From: Bacillota bacterium
GTDB taxonomy: Bacteria > Bacillota > Clostridia > RUG12999
Direction of reading: 5' to 3'
Length of the DNA stretch: 46,255 nucleotides
NCBI GenBank assembly: GCA_030705675.1
Contig: JAUZPZ010000002.1
Span: 1 to 46,255 of the forward strand
The position numbers and the translations under genes were made by a program. The notes below the pieces were generated by a model that was not told the DNA's origin, ran no database searches, and saw only the letters and a program-made list of their open reading frames with translations. This document shows positions 11,279 to 46,255 of this stretch, in pieces. The first letter of the stretch is position 1. Every line of letters starts with the position of its first letter.

Positions 11279-11752
11279 TTAAATTTGAGATTCGTTTATA
11301 CGGCCGCTATTTTTTACGTCTTTTCGAGCAAGGCCGGTTAGAGATTGATAGCTTCTGCCGTGCAAGATATTAAGAATTGTTGTGTGGTCAACCCCAAAAA
11401 AGCCTCCTATGTACCTTAAAGATTTTCCTTTTGCGTGTAATTCAAAAACCATCATTACTTGATTAAAAGCAAGCTTTCTTGATGAATAATCTGGATGCAG
11501 CTTTTTGTAATCAGAAATCTTTCGTCTGGTTTCTTCCGTCGGATGCTTACCGGTCATATGGTGCCGCGCATGTTTTGATCGTGTCGTAAGCTCAAGATTT
11601 TCAGGATCATTGTTCTGCTTATCCTCGTCACCGTGATGAACGATCTCGCTAGATGTAAGTGGCCTGCCTAATTTTTCTTCCATCACAAGACGGTGAACAT
11701 CATGTTTAACACCGTGAACCTTTTTGCCTTGATAATACTTTCCGCTTCTCAT
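11279..11752 (-). CDS. HNH endonuclease with a C-terminal HTH
   Basis: HRLVMEEKLGRPL..EIVHHGDEDKQNNDPENLEL..SKHARHH HNH motif. The ATG at 11752 lies 4 nt after the upstream stop. Confidence 0.8.
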   Translation of the reverse strand: MRSGKYYQGKKVHGVKHDVHRLVMEEKLGRPLTSSEIVHHGDEDKQNNDPENLELTTRSKHARHHMTGKHPTEETRRKISDYKKLHPDYSSRKLAFNQVMMVFELHAKGKSLRYIGGFFGVDHTTILNILHGRSYQSLTGLARKDVKNSGRINESQI

Positions 11753-11756
11753 CCGG

Positions 11757-12011
11757 TTACTTCCCAAGCAATGTACTCGACATTTCGTCTTTTGGAATAT
11801 GTAACTTCTGAGACATTCTGGAAATTTCTTCAATCGTAAAATCTCCCGGTTCTTTTAAGCGGCGGTAAAAGGTTCCGCCAGACATACACAGTGCCGCGCA
11901 CAATTCCGGAACTTCTACCCCGGACAAATACAAATACTTTTTAATGGTTGCAATCAACAATGCGTCTCTTTCTTGGGTTGCGGTTTTGCGAAGTTTAGGA
12001 ATGGCCGCCAT
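11757..12011 (-). CDS. Hypothetical HTH-like early protein
   Basis: 84-aa ORF with an ELCAALCMSGGTFYRRLKEPGDFTIEEI HTH-like stretch. The start choice is uncertain. Confidence 0.45.
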   Translation of the reverse strand: MAAIPKLRKTATQERDALLIATIKKYLYLSGVEVPELCAALCMSGGTFYRRLKEPGDFTIEEISRMSQKLHIPKDEMSSTLLGK

Positions 12012-12708: not shown

Positions 12709-13056
12709 ATGGATACAATTGATCGGATTTTTGATCTACTAGATAAATCTGGGGTTGAACAAAAAGAATTTGCAGAAGCAATAGGAACTACGCCAAACAA
12801 GGTAAGCGAATGGAAAGCAAGAAAAACAAAATCATACAACAAATATTTGCATAAAATAGCCAGTTTTTTTAATGTAGATATCAATTATTTATTGTGCGTA
12901 ACAGACGAAAAAAATAAGCCCACCGTAAATTACGATGAGCTTGATGACGAAACAAAAAAGAGTGTTGAAGTGCTTAAGAAGTTTTCTCCCAAATATCGTC
13001 AAGTTGTCTTAAAAATGCTTGAGGATCTTGCTGCTCACGAGAAAGGTCAAGAATAA
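12709..13056 (+). CDS. XRE-family (cI-like) repressor without a peptidase domain
   Basis: VEQKEFAEAIGTTPNKVSEWKARKTKSYNKYLHKIASFFNVDINYLL HTH_XRE signature; 115 aa. Confidence 0.8.
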   Translation: MDTIDRIFDLLDKSGVEQKEFAEAIGTTPNKVSEWKARKTKSYNKYLHKIASFFNVDINYLLCVTDEKNKPTVNYDELDDETKKSVEVLKKFSPKYRQVVLKMLEDLAAHEKGQE

Positions 13057-13250: not shown

Positions 13251-13799
13251 ATGAACGACTATATCAATATTCCAGCTATGGATGATGAAGAACTTTTGAA
13301 AATTTGGGATGCCCGAAAAGAATATCGAGAAGAAATTATTGATGAAGTTGTTGACGAAATTAAAAAACGAGATTTGGACAAAAAGAAAGACAATTGTATT
13401 GATCTAGATGCCGCAATACGGCAGCAAAAAGAATGCCCTAATTTTAAAAGTAAGAATAAATTTTCAAAAAATAAATACTATTCAAAAAATTTTTTTCCTA
13501 TTTCTATAATTATAGCTAGTTTTTTTATATCAACCGGGTTAGCTTTGCTTGCGCTATCTAATAGATTTTATATTGATTCTGCCACATCTAATAAAGTAGA
13601 TAGACTTACCGGAAAAGTTGAAAAAATAGACAAACAAAATGAAAGATACATAACAAACGTGACAAATCCCAATAAAGGCACAACGAAAATCGTAATTTTT
13701 GATAAAGAAACCGATAAGTTTTATGTTTATACGTGCGATACTTTTAGCAGAAAAGCTGAATTTGATGTTTATTTTGCAACAAAAAGTATTGGAAAATAA
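13251..13799 (+). CDS. Single-pass membrane protein (candidate superinfection-exclusion / lysogenic-conversion gene)
   Basis: 182 aa with a central TM helix (FFPISIIIASFFISTGLALLAL). The gene is visibly AT-rich and sits between the repressor and integrase. Confidence 0.6.
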   Translation: MNDYINIPAMDDEELLKIWDARKEYREEIIDEVVDEIKKRDLDKKKDNCIDLDAAIRQQKECPNFKSKNKFSKNKYYSKNFFPISIIIASFFISTGLALLALSNRFYIDSATSNKVDRLTGKVEKIDKQNERYITNVTNPNKGTTKIVIFDKETDKFYVYTCDTFSRKAEFDVYFATKSIGK

Positions 13800-14054
13800 A
13801 AAAAGACAGTTTCAACAACTGCCTGATTAGACGACGAGATGTCTCGCTAAATTACAACTGGCAGTCATAGGTTATCCCCTTAGACCCTATAGCTTTGCGC
13901 CCTTACCTTTCGGTATGTTTGCCGAATATTTAATTGTATATCTAGCGAATTTGTTACATTTACATAATAATACTATGTTTTGCCAATTACAACAAATATT
14001 TTAATATTATATAAAACAAACGCAAGCAATGGTTTTGGAAGAAGGGGTTTGCTT

Positions 14055-15110
14055 ATGCCCAAAGCAAAAAAATTGCCAAGTGGCAGTTGGTATATTCAAG
14101 TATCAACGGGGAAAAAAGAAAAAGGGAAATATAAATATGAATCTCGGGCTTTCCCCTCAAAAGAAGAAGCCGAATTTTGGGCCGCTGAATATAATTTACA
14201 TAAAACAAACATATCTAAATCTCTTACCAATTTAACGTTGGAAGAAGCCATGACACGATATATAGAAAGTAAAGACTGCGTGTTGTCGCCATCGACTATC
14301 GCCGGTTATAAAAAACTTAAAAAGAATTGTTTGCAGGGGTTAATGAAAATTAAATTAAATAAAATTACCCAGGAGATGATCCAGAAAGAAATCAATGCAA
14401 TGGCAAAGGATCACGCCTCAAAATATGTAAGCAATGCACACGGGCTATTAAATTCGGTATTTAAGGAATATTATCCAGACTTTACGCTTAAGACTGCTTT
14501 ACCGCAAAAACAACCATACAGCGCAAATATACCGGCAACAAATGAGATTGAACTTATTATTAAAGCTGTAAAAGATACGTCAATAGAATTGCCTGTTCTG
14601 TTGGCGCTGTGGCAAGGAATGAGAATGTCTGAAATAAGGGGCATTAAATGGGATTCGATAAAAGGCGACATGCTTCACATCAAAACAGCAATAGTTGACG
14701 CAGAAAATAAAGCCGTTGAAAAGGGAACAAAAACGGTCGCAAGCAATAGAAAAATTAAGTTGCCCAATTATCTCCTTGACCTAATAAAAAAGCAGCCGAA
14801 GAATAATGAGTTTATTGTAACGTTATCCGGACAAGCAATTTATAAAAGGTTTACAAGGCTTTGCGAAAAGGAAGGTCTTCCACATTATCGTTTTCACGAC
14901 TTACGCCATACAAATGCATCTGTTATGCTTGCGTTGAAAATACCAGACAAATACGCAATGGAGCGCGGAGGATGGGCCACAAACAACACATTAAAAACGG
15001 TTTATCAACACACAATGTCAGACGAAAGAAAGATTGTAGACGATAAAGTCAACACCTATTTTGAAAGCTTATTATCATACAAATTATCACACGATGTTTC
15101 CAATGTGTAG
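14055..15110 (+). CDS. int: Tyrosine site-specific integrase
   Basis: GMRMSEIRGIKW (Arg), FHDLRHT (HxxR) and GGW...VYQHT (Tyr). GGAAGAAGGGG RBS before the ATG at 14055. Confidence 0.9.
   Translation: MPKAKKLPSGSWYIQVSTGKKEKGKYKYESRAFPSKEEAEFWAAEYNLHKTNISKSLTNLTLEEAMTRYIESKDCVLSPSTIAGYKKLKKNCLQGLMKIKLNKITQEMIQKEINAMAKDHASKYVSNAHGLLNSVFKEYYPDFTLKTALPQKQPYSANIPATNEIELIIKAVKDTSIELPVLLALWQGMRMSEIRGIKWDSIKGDMLHIKTAIVDAENKAVEKGTKTVASNRKIKLPNYLLDLIKKQPKNNEFIVTLSGQAIYKRFTRLCEKEGLPHYRFHDLRHTNASVMLALKIPDKYAMERGGWATNNTLKTVYQHTMSDERKIVDDKVNTYFESLLSYKLSHDVSNV
15071..15094. repeat. Arm-type repeat pair (ATTATCAYA x2) inside the int 3-prime end
   Basis: The 24-mer attatcatacaaattatcacacga recurs at 15321-15344 with one mismatch. 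Confidence 0.7.
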
Positions 15111-15143
15111 TAATATCAAAGGGCATGGCGTTTTGGACGGGTT

Positions 15144-15166
15144 TTCAACTCCCCCCGCCTCCACCA
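15144..15166 (+). other. Candidate attP core: mimic of a tRNA 3-prime end
   Basis: TTCAACT (T-loop TTCRANY), CCCCC, CGCCTCC, A and CCA fit the 7+5+7+1+3 tRNA geometry. A terminator follows. No matching 5-prime half is present. Confidence 0.5.
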
Positions 15167-15168
15167 AA

Positions 15169-15198
15169 ACAGACGATACGATGTGTCGTCTGTTTTTC
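15169..15198 (+). terminator. Rho-independent terminator
   Basis: ACAGACGA/TCGTCTGT 8-bp stem followed by TTTTTC. Confidence 0.7.
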
Positions 15199-15303
15199 TT
15201 TATATTTCAATGCTTTCATTGGCTTTCTAAGCAATACGGGCATTTAGATAAATTTTATTCGTTTCAAATATGACATTATAATGTAGCAAATATAAGCACC
15301 ACA

Positions 15304-15344
15304 TGTGATAATAAAAGAAGATTATCACACAAATTATCACACGA
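15304..15344. repeat. Second cluster of the 9-mer: one inverted copy and two direct copies
   Basis: TGTGATAAT at 15304-15312 (inverted); ATTATCACA at 15321-15329 and 15333-15341. Confidence 0.7.
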
Positions 15345-15360
15345 AATTTATGCTACATTT

Positions 15361-15392
15361 AAAATAAAAAAAGAGGGGCGTAATGCCCCTCT
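15361..15392 (-). terminator. Rho-independent terminator (minus-strand orientation)
   Basis: AGAGGGGC/GCCCCTCT 8-bp stem; on the minus strand the T-run follows the stem. Confidence 0.6.
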
Positions 15393-15534
15393 AATCTTAG
15401 CTTGCTTTACTCGGTAAATATGCCTGCGGATTATCAAGAATAGCTTTTACGTTTTCCAATGCCTTTTATATATTATTCTGCTGCCGATCAGCTATACCAT
15501 GCACATAAAATTAAAGTTTCCTGAATAGCGGGGG

Positions 15535-15571
15535 AAATAAAAAAGCGGGGCGTAAAGCCCCGCTTTTTTTA
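15535..15571. terminator. Bidirectional rho-independent terminator
   Basis: AGCGGGGC/GCCCCGCT 8-bp stem flanked by an A-run and a T-run. Confidence 0.8.
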
Positions 15572-15574
15572 TGG

Positions 15575-15904
15575 TTATTCATCTGATCTATCTGATTTTG
15601 AAAAAAGATATCCAACAATTCCCGCTACAATAAATTTTAAGACTTCGAACAAAGGAACTTTTAACTCACTACTCGAATGAAAAAATGTATCGAATACAAA
15701 CATAGCTCCAAGAATTGCAAGACATATGTATAACATCCTACGGGCTTGTCCTTCGCAGAAAAGCCTCATTTTTTGTGCTGGAGTTAAAGCATCTTTAATT
15801 GTGGGATTCAGCATTGGATAGTTGTCTGGTGGTATATCAATGCCTTCATGCTCTTCGCAAGGAATAACTTGAGATTTTTCTTCGGCAACCAATATTAAAC
15901 CCAA
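15575..15904 (-). CDS. Small two-TM membrane protein; candidate toxin partner of the Panacea protein
   Basis: Overlaps the upstream gene by 10 nt. An acidic N-terminus is followed by two hydrophobic helices. The start is uncertain (TTG at 15904 or ATG at 15814). Confidence 0.55.
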   Translation of the reverse strand: MGLILVAEEKSQVIPCEEHEGIDIPPDNYPMLNPTIKDALTPAQKMRLFCEGQARRMLYICLAILGAMFVFDTFFHSSSELKVPLFEVLKFIVAGIVGYLFSKSDRSDE

Positions 15905-16341
15905 CTTTCTGATTTAATATCTTCATCATTTAAGAACAATTCTCCTTTAAGATTTGCTTTATCCCAAGCGCTTCCAGCTTGATGAGTTTTAGATGAAAGT
16001 TGAATCGCCCCTTCATCTTTATATCTATCCCAAATTTGATTTATTACTTGAGAAAAAGCGGAATTTCCTCTCAAATCATAAACTTTTGCTTTTCCTTCTT
16101 CACCGATGTAATAATTAAGGATAGGGCTTGCGCAATAATGCTTAAAACAATTGTAAACGCATGAAAGAACAGGGCCGTATTTCCATGCTTCAAATCGCTC
16201 CGAGAATAATGGATTCCCAGTACGTTTTAAATATTCCCGATACACTAAATAAATCAACTTTTGCAGTTTCATTGGCGTTACAGGAATATTATCTTGGAAT
16301 GCTCTTTGCAAAATGGTATTAGATATCAATAATACATCCAT
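15895..16341 (-). CDS. Panacea / DUF4065-domain protein (SocA/PanA-like antitoxin candidate)
   Basis: PMKLQKLIYLVYREYLKRTGNPLFSERFEAWKYGPVLSCVY matches the DUF4065 core. AAGGAGG RBS before the ATG at 16341. Confidence 0.75.
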   Translation of the reverse strand: MDVLLISNTILQRAFQDNIPVTPMKLQKLIYLVYREYLKRTGNPLFSERFEAWKYGPVLSCVYNCFKHYCASPILNYYIGEEGKAKVYDLRGNSAFSQVINQIWDRYKDEGAIQLSSKTHQAGSAWDKANLKGELFLNDEDIKSESWV

Positions 16342-16381
16342 AATATATTCCTCCTTATAAAACAAGCTTAATTTCATTAAC

Positions 16382-16410
16382 ATCTTACCAAGATTAGCCA
16401 TGAAAATCAA
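16382..16410 (-). promoter_or_regulatory. Promoter TTGATT-17-TAAGAT for the Panacea cassette
   Basis: -35 at 16405-16410 and -10 at 16382-16387 on the minus strand, just downstream of the lysis terminator. Confidence 0.55.
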
Positions 16411-16456
16411 TACCCCGTATTATTGTATGCAAAAATTTGTTTGATAGATTGTGAGC

Positions 16457-16499
16457 AAAAAAAATAAAAAAAGCCGTCACGTATATTTCACGTGACGGC
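16457..16499 (-). terminator. Strong rho-independent terminator closing the lysis cassette
   Basis: GCCGTCACGT/ACGTGACGGC 10-bp stem followed by a long T-run on the minus strand. Confidence 0.85.
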
Positions 16500-16517
16500 C
16501 CTCTCTTATTCTACCCG

Positions 16518-17021
16518 TTATTTTAATCTCGTCTTGAACGCCGCCCAAGCTGCCGGGTTGTTGACATACGGCGCTGGGCAGATTTTACCCATTACGTCAT
16601 AGTGGCGAATGACGTGATCGACGGGAATGCCGTACTTCGTCATAAGTTCCTTTGTCAGCGCCTCGGCCTGGTAAATTGTCGCGTCGTCAAAATACCAATT
16701 GCCTTTACTGTCGATATGGCAGCACATTTCAATGCCTATGCTGTTTGAATTGCGGCAGAAAGGATGCTTGTACTTTTTCGCCCCGCAGTGCCACGCGGTA
16801 TTTTCCGGCGCCACGCTTTGATATACCGCGGCGTTTTCACCTTTATGCCCGACAAAGAAATGCGCCGACGCCTGACGGTCCGGGTGATTGTGATAATATT
16901 GCACGTTTTGCAAAGCGGTTCCGGTGCCGCCTGTGTAGTGAATCACTATGTATTCAATTTTTCGAGGCCGCCCAGGCGTGTAAAATCCCGTTTTGCAGGG
17001 ATAGCTTTTATTTATATTCAT
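16518..17021 (-). CDS. Endolysin, N-acetylmuramoyl-L-alanine amidase (Amidase_2/PGRP type)
   Basis: YIVIHYTGG...ASAHFFV...TAWHCG...NSIGIEMC zinc-amidase motifs. No wall-binding domain is apparent. Confidence 0.9.
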   Translation of the reverse strand: MNINKSYPCKTGFYTPGRPRKIEYIVIHYTGGTGTALQNVQYYHNHPDRQASAHFFVGHKGENAAVYQSVAPENTAWHCGAKKYKHPFCRNSNSIGIEMCCHIDSKGNWYFDDATIYQAEALTKELMTKYGIPVDHVIRHYDVMGKICPAPYVNNPAAWAAFKTRLK

Positions 17022-46067: not shown

Positions 46068-46239
46068 AATCTTCCTGCCTTTCTCCATCGTGCGCATAAC
46101 CTTGCTTTTGTTTGCGCCTGTTTACCCTGTTCAGATATTGCTTTGCCCACTTAAACCATCCAGGGCTAATGCAAAAAATACCTTTATGATGCAACCTATC
46201 GGCAATTTCAGCTTCCTTGCCTAAAAGCTTACGGCTCAT
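46057..46239 (-). CDS. Hypothetical protein spanning the circular junction
   Basis: Its start at 46239 corresponds to position 125 of the left repeat copy and overlaps the stop of 115-441 by 11 nt. Confidence 0.45.
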   Translation of the reverse strand: MSRKLLGKEAEIADRLHHKGIFCISPGWFKWAKQYLNRVNRRKQKQGYAHDGERQEDYES

Positions 46240-46255
46240 TTGGTAGCCGCCTTTC
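46115..46255. repeat. Right copy of the 141-bp exact terminal direct repeat
   Basis: Identical to 1-141. Confidence 0.95.

Follow-up and report, generated by a model that had tools for sequence, protein, structure and literature searches.

SocA and SocB of Caulobacter crescentus form a type VI toxin–antitoxin (TA) pair (NF047745) in which SocA, a Panacea-domain protein, is a ClpXP adaptor that degrades SocB, an inhibitor of replication. PanA/PanT modules, in which a Panacea antitoxin is paired with a toxin, are already established and include membrane-depolarising toxins and prophage-borne cases, so that the type of system considered here is not new. The PanTs of clusters T3 and T12, which combine a charged N-terminus with C-terminal transmembrane helices, depolarise and permeabilise the membranes of Escherichia coli, and PanA neutralises them (Kurata et al., 2022; PMC8832971). 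Among the seven membrane-type PanTs assayed, validation succeeded for three; a further two were toxic but not cleanly rescued, one could not be cloned and one was non-toxic. More generally, 8 of the 25 PanA partners assayed had no toxic effect in E. coli, one of them a "membrane" partner encoded by a C. difficile prophage (PMC8832971). T3, which is represented in E. coli STEC O31, Larkinella spp. and Escherichia phage PhiR47_1, and T12 are regarded by the same authors as possibly distantly related (PMC8832971).

Molecular detail comes from the Bartonella pair (T12/D11, B. apis/choladocola; PMC8832971, PMC10440598). The Panacea domain adopts a compact fold of helices α1–7 and strands β1–2 (PMC10440598). 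Mutagenesis placed the interface of PanA and PanT(D11) in the N-terminal region of the toxin and the helix that precedes its transmembrane segment, and the PanA substitutions Y56A and H120E abolish neutralisation (PMC10440598). We describe here a two-gene unit of a phage genome in which a standalone Panacea protein is encoded directly ahead of a small membrane protein.

Genomic setting of the two-gene unit

The window, the whole stretch of DNA that was analysed (46,255 nt, from a Bacillota bacterium), begins and ends with an identical 141 nt and is therefore a complete circular or terminally redundant phage genome of ~46.1 kb; an integrated prophage is ruled out. The "prophage end" at which a preliminary description had located the unit consequently does not exist in the sense of an integrated element, but it stands as the junction of lysis genes, attP and integrase (Table 1). 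Holin (PF04531) and amidase (PF01510) genes directly precede the cassette.

Table 1. Features of the two-gene unit and its flanks, in window positions.
Feature	Positions	Strand	Details
Integrase	13980–15110	plus	converges on cassette
Bidirectional intrinsic terminator, module end	15539–15569	both	13-nt perfect arms, 5-nt loop
Gene 2, PanT-type toxin candidate, small membrane protein	15575–15904	minus	109 aa from TTG
Gene 1, PanA-type antitoxin candidate, standalone Panacea domain	15895–16341	minus	148 aa, ATG start
Shine-Dalgarno AAGGAGG	16350–16356	minus	8 nt upstream of gene 1 ATG
Candidate σ70-type promoter	16382–16410	minus	−35 TTGATT (16410–16405), 17-nt spacer, extended −10 TGgTAAGAT (16390–16382)
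Two 14-nt direct repeats, 26 nt apart	16422–16461	minus	ATTGTATGCAAAAA / ATTGTGAGCAAAAA (plus-strand letters), just upstream of −35
Intrinsic terminator closing lysis cassette	16466–16506	minus	18-pair stem, then T-run on minus strand
Amidase gene (PF01510)	16518–17021		lysis cassette

All sequence features named in the preliminary description were found where it had placed them, among them the ribosome-binding site ahead of gene 1 and the terminators on either side of the unit. The lysis-side terminator, described earlier as a strong 10-bp stem, has core arms of 10 nt each (16473–16482 and 16490–16499) that are 100% complementary and, judged from its sequence, insulates the module from late transcription; a comparably strong terminator is found upstream of PanA in L090, the closest homologous cassette. 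The hairpin at the opposite end has, on each strand, an A-run before it and a T-run after it, which makes it bidirectional, and it is predicted to separate the module from the attP/integrase side. Sub-threshold sRNA matches (MicX, ar9) at 15357–15572 were dismissed as terminator-driven.

The private promoter attributed to the unit is upheld in part. The TTGATT-17-TAAGAT sequence agrees with only 8 of 12 consensus positions and falls below the promoter-scan threshold; in its favour are the extended −10 element and a position that is conserved in L090, where TTGCAA-17-TGgTAAATT lies upstream with identical spacing, so that both cassettes have in common the TTG of the −35 hexamer and, in the extended −10, TGGTAA. 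The 14-nt direct repeats could be an operator or an UP-like element, and an alignment of the upstream regions revealed no evident conservation of them in L090.

The cassette has a GC content of 0.339 vs. 0.42 for the whole window, and GC at third codon positions (GC3) is 0.25 in gene 1 and in gene 2, compared with 0.58 in the amidase gene, 0.57 in the holin gene and 0.37–0.58 across the neighbouring genes. The visibly lower GC reported earlier is thus confirmed, and terminators, GC and GC3 together bear out a moron-like placement with foreign base composition.

The Panacea protein and its membrane partner

Gene 1 had been assigned to DUF4065/Panacea by eye, and the Pfam search agrees: its product matches PF13274 (SocA_Panacea) with 72.1 bits (E = 9.5e-20; cut-off 25.7) over model positions 1–112 of 113, and phrog_1281 with E = 7.5e-34. 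The protein carries neither an N-terminal HTH nor a PAD1 domain, and at 99.7 bits against a cut-off of 190 for NF047745 it is not a SocA equivalog. The AF2 model (pLDDT 96.2), with seven helices (α1–7) and two strands (β1–2), fits the described Panacea fold and its conserved core residues Y55 and H120. Y55 lies immediately before β2 (56–58) and H120 at the end of α5 (112–119), and by position in the predicted fold they match Y56 and H120 of Bartonella PanA. In 33 homologues of gene 1, W53, Y55, G56, P57, V58 and T119 do not vary, and conservation of H120 is at least 90%. The PDB, searched with PanA by sequence and by fold, yielded no solved relative, and a search of BFVD returned only unnamed viral Panacea-like models; neither gene product matches any defence-system model in PADLOC-DB 2.0.

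Gene 2 overlaps gene 1 by 10 nt, and its coordinates, its acidic N-terminus and its two hydrophobic helices, including both hydrophobic stretches quoted in the preliminary description, were all confirmed. Three start codons are candidates: TTG at 15904, TTG at 15892 (the database gene call, P0001, of 105 aa) and the ATG that forms codon 31. In P0040, a homologue of 51% identity, the ATG start aligns with 15904 (MGITL vs. MGLIL) and produces an identical 10-nt overlap. The TTG is situated inside the stop region of gene 1 and lacks a well-spaced Shine-Dalgarno sequence.

In the AF2 model of gene 2, which was built from a smaller alignment than the full family alignment, residues 1–33 have a pLDDT below 50 and are followed by helices at 34–74 and 82–106 that form a hairpin (pLDDT 72–86). 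The product is thus predicted to consist of an acidic, disordered N-terminus of ~33 residues, with ~50 residues before the first hydrophobic helix, and a two-helix membrane hairpin. The N-terminal net charge is −5 (family median −6); the motif E-G-I-D-I-P-P occurs in the N-terminus and GYLF at the C-terminus. Gene 2 has each of the residues conserved in the family described below: P25 (91%), K90 (89%), G98 (99%) and F101 (95%), and also D23 (81%), C61 (74%) and E87 (72%). It has no match in Pfam, NCBIfam, PHROGs or PADLOC, its family is without a curated model, and neither gene 2 nor 30 family members match any holin family.

A PanA-adjacent family and its relation to described PanT clusters

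The preliminary description could not place gene 2 in any family. This holds for curated libraries, but the protein belongs to a large and conserved PanA-adjacent family of two-helix membrane proteins, with 80 unique members among the loci fetched, which became visible only through the neighbours of PanA homologues. A word-indexed search of 5.8 billion proteins with the gene 2 sequence returned only gene 2 itself, and with the family profile eight proteins; exhaustive phmmer gave one close relative (P0040: E = 9.5e-18) and two weak ones, and tblastn and blastn against INPHARED phages gave nothing useful. Among the genome loci, drawn from many genera, 38 of 80 have a match to the family profile in the ORF that immediately follows PanA on its 3′ side; among IMG/VR viral loci the figure is 75 of 80. 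In the five remaining viral loci, where the frame after PanA was read by eye with start codons left aside, four have an acidic stretch, a D-x-P-P/F-type motif and hydrophobic helices, and the fifth (L125) has the acidic stretch only.

The association is reciprocal. Searches that started from gene 2 alone yielded five homologues (P0040, P0041, P0042, P0048, P0050), and each of them has PF13274 encoded directly upstream, with overlaps of 4 to 20 nt between PanA and its partner. The pair recurs in ~100 related phage and bacterial loci that were fetched, and the pairwise identities of PanA and partner are correlated (Mantel r = 0.82; none of 999 permutations as high). The pairing is conserved and co-diverging across many phages and bacteria, and in adjacency and reciprocity the locus is of the PanAT type as defined by Kurata et al. 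(2022; PMC8832971). In their order, overlap and insulation the two genes likewise fit the PanA/PanT-type module that had been proposed.

Family members are found mainly in Firmicute and Actinobacterial prophages, including those of Streptococcus pyogenes, Blautia, Flavonifractor, Gardnerella and Parvimonas, and named carriers are Streptococcus phage Javan470, Blautia phage Montmirail and Flavonifractor phage Chenonceau. All are annotated as "hypothetical protein", our literature search found no experimental report on the family, and none of the family-bearing species appears with it among the listed rows of Dataset S1 and the NetFlax tables. What is added here is that the unannotated partner is no orphan: it defines a large PanA-adjacent family, whose carriers are prophages of Gram-positive bacteria of medical and ecological relevance.

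Both genes have true homologues in S. pyogenes/dysgalactiae prophages (Javan470, Javan157), where PanA (GepA) is 46% identical to gene 1 and its 104-aa partner matches the family profile with E = 2.5e-25; the pair is annotated there only as "GepA protein" and "hypothetical protein". The order of lysin, pair and prophage end is the same as in the phage described here, with an adjoining paratox gene: Javan470 reads holin–holin–lysin, GepA (PanA), the 104-aa family member, paratox. In L090 the gene before the pair, itself followed by the terminator, weakly resembles VanY (E = 3e-4, short of the Pfam cut-off) and is possibly an endolysin gene. In Streptococcus phage P9 a lysin gene is followed by a PanA/PanT pair with the same 10-nt overlap. 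Other settings are the early genes and tRNAs upstream of terminase in Montmirail, a serine recombinase in L002 and L192, and an integrase with antirepressors in L005–L008.

Several described groups invite comparison with gene 2. The system T12/D11, as here, has a standalone Panacea antitoxin encoded first, and the N-terminus of its partner, likened to gene 2 by description, is charged and unstructured and leads into transmembrane helices; the PanA residues that contact that partner have predicted equivalents in Y55 and H120 of gene 1. The T12/D11 toxin depolarises and permeabilises the membrane (PMC8832971). T12 is proteobacterial and chromosomal ("NotPhage" in the table of Kurata et al.), whereas the gene 2 family belongs mainly to Firmicute and Actinobacterial prophages. 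A scan with a candidate bridging subfamily (A5) had no Bartonella among its returns, and a scan with subfamily A6 gave three loci only.

T3 has the same order of PanA and partner with a short gap or overlap, and its partners, of 120–180 aa, resemble the gene 2 family in that the N-terminus is charged, the C-terminal part forms two transmembrane helices and the second of these ends in a [GK]-[YL]-L-F motif. The T3 toxin has been validated as membrane-depolarising (PMC8832971). The motif of the second helix differs, being G-[ST]-T-T-[VI]-N in T3 and F-E-x-x-K in the gene 2 family. When 33 family sequences were compared by hhalign with a 21-sequence T3 set, made up of two Larkinella members from Dataset S1 and similar PanA-adjacent proteins chosen by eye, the probability was 13.5% with E = 0.002 over only 17 C-terminal columns (the YLF motif), vs. 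E = 0.03–0.06 for reversed controls. HMM cross-scores were 8–12 bits (12 bits for the T3 PanT of PhiR47_1). The gene 2 family and T3 are best treated as distinct clusters, perhaps distantly related. The architecture of charged N-terminus and C-terminal transmembrane helices predicted for gene 2 has already been described for the validated clusters T3 and T12 (PMC8832971), and the suggestion that gene 2 might be an undescribed toxin type is not supported in the form in which it was made.

The T4 pair of Streptococcus phage P9 (gp51/gp52) occupies the same niche, after the lysin at the prophage end, and gp52 is of membrane type and toxic in E. coli, where PanA failed to neutralise it (PMC8832971). 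However, gp52 has 269 aa, its N-terminus is a long coiled coil and its hydrophobic segments number three to four, in contrast to gene 2, the N-terminus of which is disordered and has no coiled coil; with −1.9 bits against the family profile gp52 shows no similarity, and T4 was rejected. Cluster T1 was also set aside, as its assayed members were predicted by the authors to be mRNases (PMC8832971). SocB is unrelated to gene 2, whose product is a membrane protein.

Proposed function and alternative explanations

We consider it likely, with a probability of about 0.65, that the unit is a type II PanA/PanT TA module whose toxin acts on the membrane, and that it forms an autonomous moron of a temperate phage, situated between the lysis genes and the attP/integrase junction. 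Membrane-acting partners of PanA, which the preliminary description had invoked, are precedented by the T3, T12 and T4 PanTs (Kurata et al., 2022; PMC8832971). Both genes would be transcribed from the private promoter, in the lysogen as well. Gene 2, given its TTG start in the stop region of gene 1 and the missing well-spaced Shine-Dalgarno sequence, would have a low rate of translation, coupled to that of gene 1, which would leave PanA in excess. The arginine pair (RR) before the first helix suggests an insertion that leaves the two ends of the gene 2 product in the cytoplasm, where PanA may neutralise it by binding the acidic N-terminus and the short pre-transmembrane helix, by analogy with the Bartonella pair; the family motif [DE][DE]-x-P-[FLP] is a candidate docking element. 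Free gene 2 product would dissipate the membrane potential in the manner of the validated membrane PanTs. Loss or turnover of PanA, or an infection cue sensed by Panacea, would release the toxin and arrest the cell, with prophage addiction, abortive-infection defence or both as the consequence.

Alternatively, the gene 2 protein might be non-toxic in itself, such as a superinfection-exclusion or injection-blocking protein or a membrane anchor for PanA, and Panacea the sensor or regulator of a sensor–effector or membrane-tethering module. For multidomain PanAs, Ernits et al. prefer to see Panacea as a sensor, but standalone Panacea antitoxins, the kind to which gene 1 belongs, have direct neutralisation as their demonstrated mode (PMC10440598). 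Several PanA partners, one prophage "membrane" partner among them, are non-toxic in E. coli; the same architecture is nevertheless experimentally toxic in T3 and T12 (PMC8832971). The conserved E87 and K90 of the second helix and the near-invariant G-Y-x-F suggest a specific surface rather than a generic pore-former, and a moron position in a prophage is typical of exclusion genes, yet the combination of gene order, overlaps of a few to ~20 nt and tight co-divergence is the signature of a TA pair, and we judge a non-toxic partner to be unlikely.

Gene 2 might instead assist lysis under the control of PanA, as an antiholin, a holin-like protein or a timer of lysis. This is suggested by a location directly after holin and amidase genes, repeated after the lysin in Javan470 and P9 and possibly in L090, and by a small size, two transmembrane helices and charged ends that resemble the topology of class II holins. 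This role appears very improbable in view of the strong terminator that divides the cassette from the lysis genes, the candidate promoter of its own, the much lower GC3, the occurrence of the pair away from lysis genes (Montmirail, L002, L192, L005–L008), the lack of a holin family match and the PF04531 holin that the phage already has. Equally hard to credit is an inactive, hitch-hiking remnant in which PanA is accompanied by a decayed or non-expressed partner. The TTG start, which lacks a well-spaced Shine-Dalgarno sequence, and the promoter with 8 of 12 consensus positions might be taken in this sense, but a weak toxin start with translational coupling is expected in a TA pair, L090 has the promoter elements at corresponding positions, the start aligns with the ATG of P0040, and the frame of gene 2 is intact and retains P25, K90, G98, F101, D23, C61 and E87. 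The closest PanA homologue (L001) has a frameshifted copy of the partner beside it; this copy was discounted as evidence of toxin decay, because the same assembly apparently splits the terminase gene too.

The preferred reading, a PanA/PanT module with a membrane-acting toxin, would if validated extend membrane PanTs into Firmicute phages and make annotatable the many "hypothetical protein" genes that lie beside "GepA"/DUF4065 genes. The compact pair of 148 aa and 109 aa, with its candidate interface residues, would offer a model for Panacea control of a membrane toxin and would be suited to the study of prophage cassettes in addiction or defence. More tentatively, the gene 2 family may possibly represent a distinct, unnamed class of PanA-neutralised membrane toxins that is widespread in Firmicute and Actinobacterial prophages, with the acidic motif perhaps acting as a portable docking peptide. 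Such a peptide, if real, would explain why Panacea pairs with many unrelated membrane effectors and would provide a handle on abortive-infection switching by prophage modules. By eye, the [DE][DE]-x-P-[FLP] motif is also present in T3-like and other partners of related PanAs.

A Panacea cassette in a temperate phage genome

The window represents the genome of a temperate phage. Its minus strand encodes the large terminase, the portal, a tail protein of 1,304 aa, holin (PF04531), amidase (PF01510), DnaB helicase and other early proteins; its plus strand encodes a tyrosine integrase and an HTH protein that resembles cI. Because positions 1–141 recur with 100% identity at 46115–46255, the window amounts to a complete phage genome (~46.1 kb), either circular or terminally redundant. 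The preliminary description had placed the two-gene cassette, which encodes a Panacea protein (gene 1) and a small membrane partner (gene 2), at a prophage end; it does separate the lysis genes from the attP region, and the integrase converges on it from the other side, but the phage is not an integrated prophage.

All coordinates of that description, for terminators, promoter, genes and their overlap, were confirmed on re-reading (see table). The cassette is insulated by its terminators and foreign in composition: its lower GC, remarked on at the outset, is 0.339 vs. 0.42 for the window, and GC3 is 0.25 in both genes vs. 0.57–0.58 in holin and amidase. The candidate private promoter has an extended −10 element but is weaker than had been implied, with 8 of 12 positions agreeing with the consensus and no entry in the promoter scan's list; its TTG and TGGTAA elements match, at equal spacing, the region upstream of the closest homologous cassette (locus L090). 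Directly upstream of the −35 hexamer stands a pair of 14-nt direct repeats (ATTGTATGCAAAAA and ATTGTGAGCAAAAA) at a distance of 26 nt, which could be a regulator-binding site. Alignment with the ATG start of P0040, a gene 2 homologue, favours the tabulated TTG start (MGITL vs. MGLIL, with an equal 10-nt overlap); the TTG at 15892 is a conceivable alternative.

Features of the cassette and the neighbouring lysogeny region
Feature	Position	Strand	Remarks
Intrinsic terminator after amidase gene	core arms 16473–16482 and 16490–16499	−	arms perfectly complementary, then T-run
Direct repeats	16422–16461		
Candidate promoter	TTGATT 16410–16405; TGgTAAGAT 16390–16382	−	17-nt spacer; read from sequence
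AAGGAGG	16356–16350	−	8 nt 5′ of gene 1 ATG
Gene 1	16341–15895	−	148 aa; ATG start; PF13274
Gene 2	15904–15575	−	109 aa; TTG start; 10-nt overlap with gene 1
Bidirectional terminator hairpin	15539–15569	both	perfect 13-nt arms; A-run and T-run at flanks
attP region	15111–15574		intact
Cassette–integrase stretch	15357–15572		~210 nt
Terminator-like hairpin	15372–15392	−	
Tandem repeat	15321–15344		
Further hairpin	15166–15196		after integrase gene
Promoter-like TTGTAA-17-TATTAT	13992–13964	−	upstream of RF01051 aptamer
c-di-GMP-I riboswitch aptamer (RF01051)	13933–13850	−	full length; 60.7 bits vs. gathering score 35; E 2e-10
Intrinsic terminator	13824–13804	−	downstream of RF01051 aptamer
182-aa ORF	13251–13799	+	
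cI-like HTH gene	12709–13056	+	
HNH endonuclease	11279–11833	−	HTH_38 and NUMOD3 motifs

The Panacea protein and the family of its partner

Gene 1 had been read as a Panacea protein, and the Pfam search agrees (PF13274, SocA_Panacea; E 9.5e-20). Its AlphaFold model (pLDDT 96) has seven helices and two strands, the fold described for Panacea; Y55 just ahead of β2 and H120, which closes α5, are conserved across its clade.

Gene 2 had been called unplaceable, and neither it nor 30 relatives matched any Pfam, NCBIfam or PADLOC family or, significantly, any PHROG; it does, however, belong to a family adjacent to PanA (the Panacea antitoxin). A word-indexed protein search with gene 2 alone returned only itself, and an exhaustive phmmer search of 1.84 billion representatives gave P0040 as the single clear relative (51% identity, E 9.5e-18), besides two marginal matches. 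The direct downstream neighbours of gene 1 homologues are proteins of 100–130 aa with the gene 2 layout and recognisable similarity. A six-sequence profile recognises the ORF next downstream of the Panacea gene at 38 of 80 genome loci gathered with the PanA alignment (Lachnospiraceae, Oscillospiraceae, Parvimonas, Gardnerella, Jonesia and others), and a 33-sequence profile does so in 75 of 80 IMG/VR viral loci. By eye, with start codons unchecked, four of the other five viral loci show an acidic stretch, a D-x-P-P/F-type motif and then hydrophobic helices in the frame after PanA; the fifth (L125) shows the acidic stretch only. Conversely, all five relatives from gene 2-only searches are directly preceded by a PF13274 gene, with overlaps of 4 to 20 nt. 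Over 74 pairs, PanA and partner identities co-vary (Mantel r 0.82, reached by 0 of 999 permutations), and the partner diverges about twice as much (mean identity 23% vs. 42%). Named phages carrying the pair include Streptococcus phage Javan470, Blautia phage Montmirail and Flavonifractor phage Chenonceau; Javan157 is counted by its PanA match. At L001 (GCA_030153525.1 contig JASEKR010012934.1, 3440–3830), which has the closest homologue of PanA (61% identity), the adjacent gene 2 counterpart is spread over three frames; this may be an assembly error rather than toxin decay, because the terminase gene on that contig also appears split.

The 80 unique members, of median length 115 aa, have an acidic N-terminal region (median net charge −6) with a short [DE][DE]-x-P-[FLP] motif, its proline kept in 91%, which in gene 2 reads E-G-I-D-I-P-P. 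Basic residues precede a first hydrophobic helix with a conserved cysteine (74%); after a short loop come a second helix, where E (72%) and K (89%) are conserved, and a G(99%)-Y-x-F(95%) end with a short polar tail. AlphaFold2 leaves gene 2 residues 1–33 disordered and predicts helices at 34–74 and 82–106 (hairpin pLDDT 72–86); the RR ahead of helix 1 would place both termini in the cytoplasm.

Relation to known PanA/PanT systems and proposed function

The Panacea domain owes its name to Kurata et al. (2022; PMC8832971), who validated nine PanA/PanT pairs and listed 88 putative clusters of the toxin, PanT; they note that small transmembrane peptides are frequent among predicted PanTs. Three validated toxins act on membranes, which they depolarise and permeabilise: T3 (E. 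coli), T12 (Bartonella) and T4 (Helicobacter). In Bartonella PanA:PanT(D11), the standalone Panacea domain touches the toxin's unstructured N-terminus and short pre-transmembrane helix, and neutralisation is lost in the Y56A and H120E mutants (Ernits et al., 2023; PMC10440598). By its architecture and antitoxin interface residues the present pair looks like a T3/T12-type system, T12 being likened by description. Profile–profile comparison of T3 with the gene 2 family gave a probability of 13.5% (E 0.002) over 17 C-terminal columns only, which contain a common Y-L-F motif (reversed controls E 0.03–0.06). Two fetched Larkinella loci are T3 in Dataset S1 of Kurata et al., and the annotated PanA/PanT of phage PhiR47_1 matches the T3 profile (E 4e-10). 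The T4 member P9 gp52 resembles gene 2 in place, following a lysin gene and overlapping PanA by 10 nt, but is unrelated in direct comparison. At five genome loci whose PanA homologues are more distant (L070, L072, L081–L083), the gene after the Proteobacterial PanA encodes not a transmembrane partner but a conserved non-membrane protein of ~236–243 aa, which illustrates the partner swapping already reported for Panacea.

We favour a type II PanA/PanT module in which PanA holds a membrane-inserting toxin (probability about 0.65). A bicistronic message would be made in the lysogen from the private, probably constitutive promoter. Since gene 2 starts at a TTG and has no well-spaced Shine–Dalgarno sequence, its translation would be weak and coupled to gene 1. 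Free gene 2 product would insert into the membrane and collapse its potential; PanA would hold it by the cytoplasmic acidic N-terminus, with [DE][DE]-x-P as candidate docking peptide, and the module would serve addiction or abortive infection. A non-toxic pair acting in exclusion or as a sensor and its anchor is rather unlikely, and an inactive remnant highly improbable. Equally improbable is an accessory to lysis, despite the neighbouring lysis genes: a terminator separates amidase gene and cassette, the composition differs, and the pair also occurs far from lysis genes. That a common N-terminal docking motif explains how Panacea pairs with membrane effectors of many kinds, in a toxin class widespread among Gram-positive prophages, is a more speculative reading. 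The kind of system first proposed, PanA/PanT with a membrane-type partner, thus stands and was already known; gene 2, less of an unknown than claimed, is an uncharacterised partner within it, whose every family member is annotated "hypothetical protein" and for which the literature searched held no experimental report.

The attP region and a c-di-GMP-I riboswitch aptamer

The intact attP region is flanked by integrase and cassette. Terminator-like hairpins, one of them the bidirectional terminator, bracket the cassette–integrase stretch, where sRNA matches were sub-threshold only (MicX, 34.7 bits vs. 75). The nearby tandem repeat ATTATCACACAA/ATTATCACACGA could represent attP sites for the integrase, of arm or core type. 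Downstream of the c-di-GMP-I riboswitch, which lies beside the lysogeny module, the minus strand has no ORF of 40 aa or more; a read-through transcript would run antisense to the 182-aa ORF and the cI-like HTH gene, and could be an antisense transcript into the module gated by c-di-GMP. Among the early genes lies a homing-endonuclease-like HNH endonuclease.
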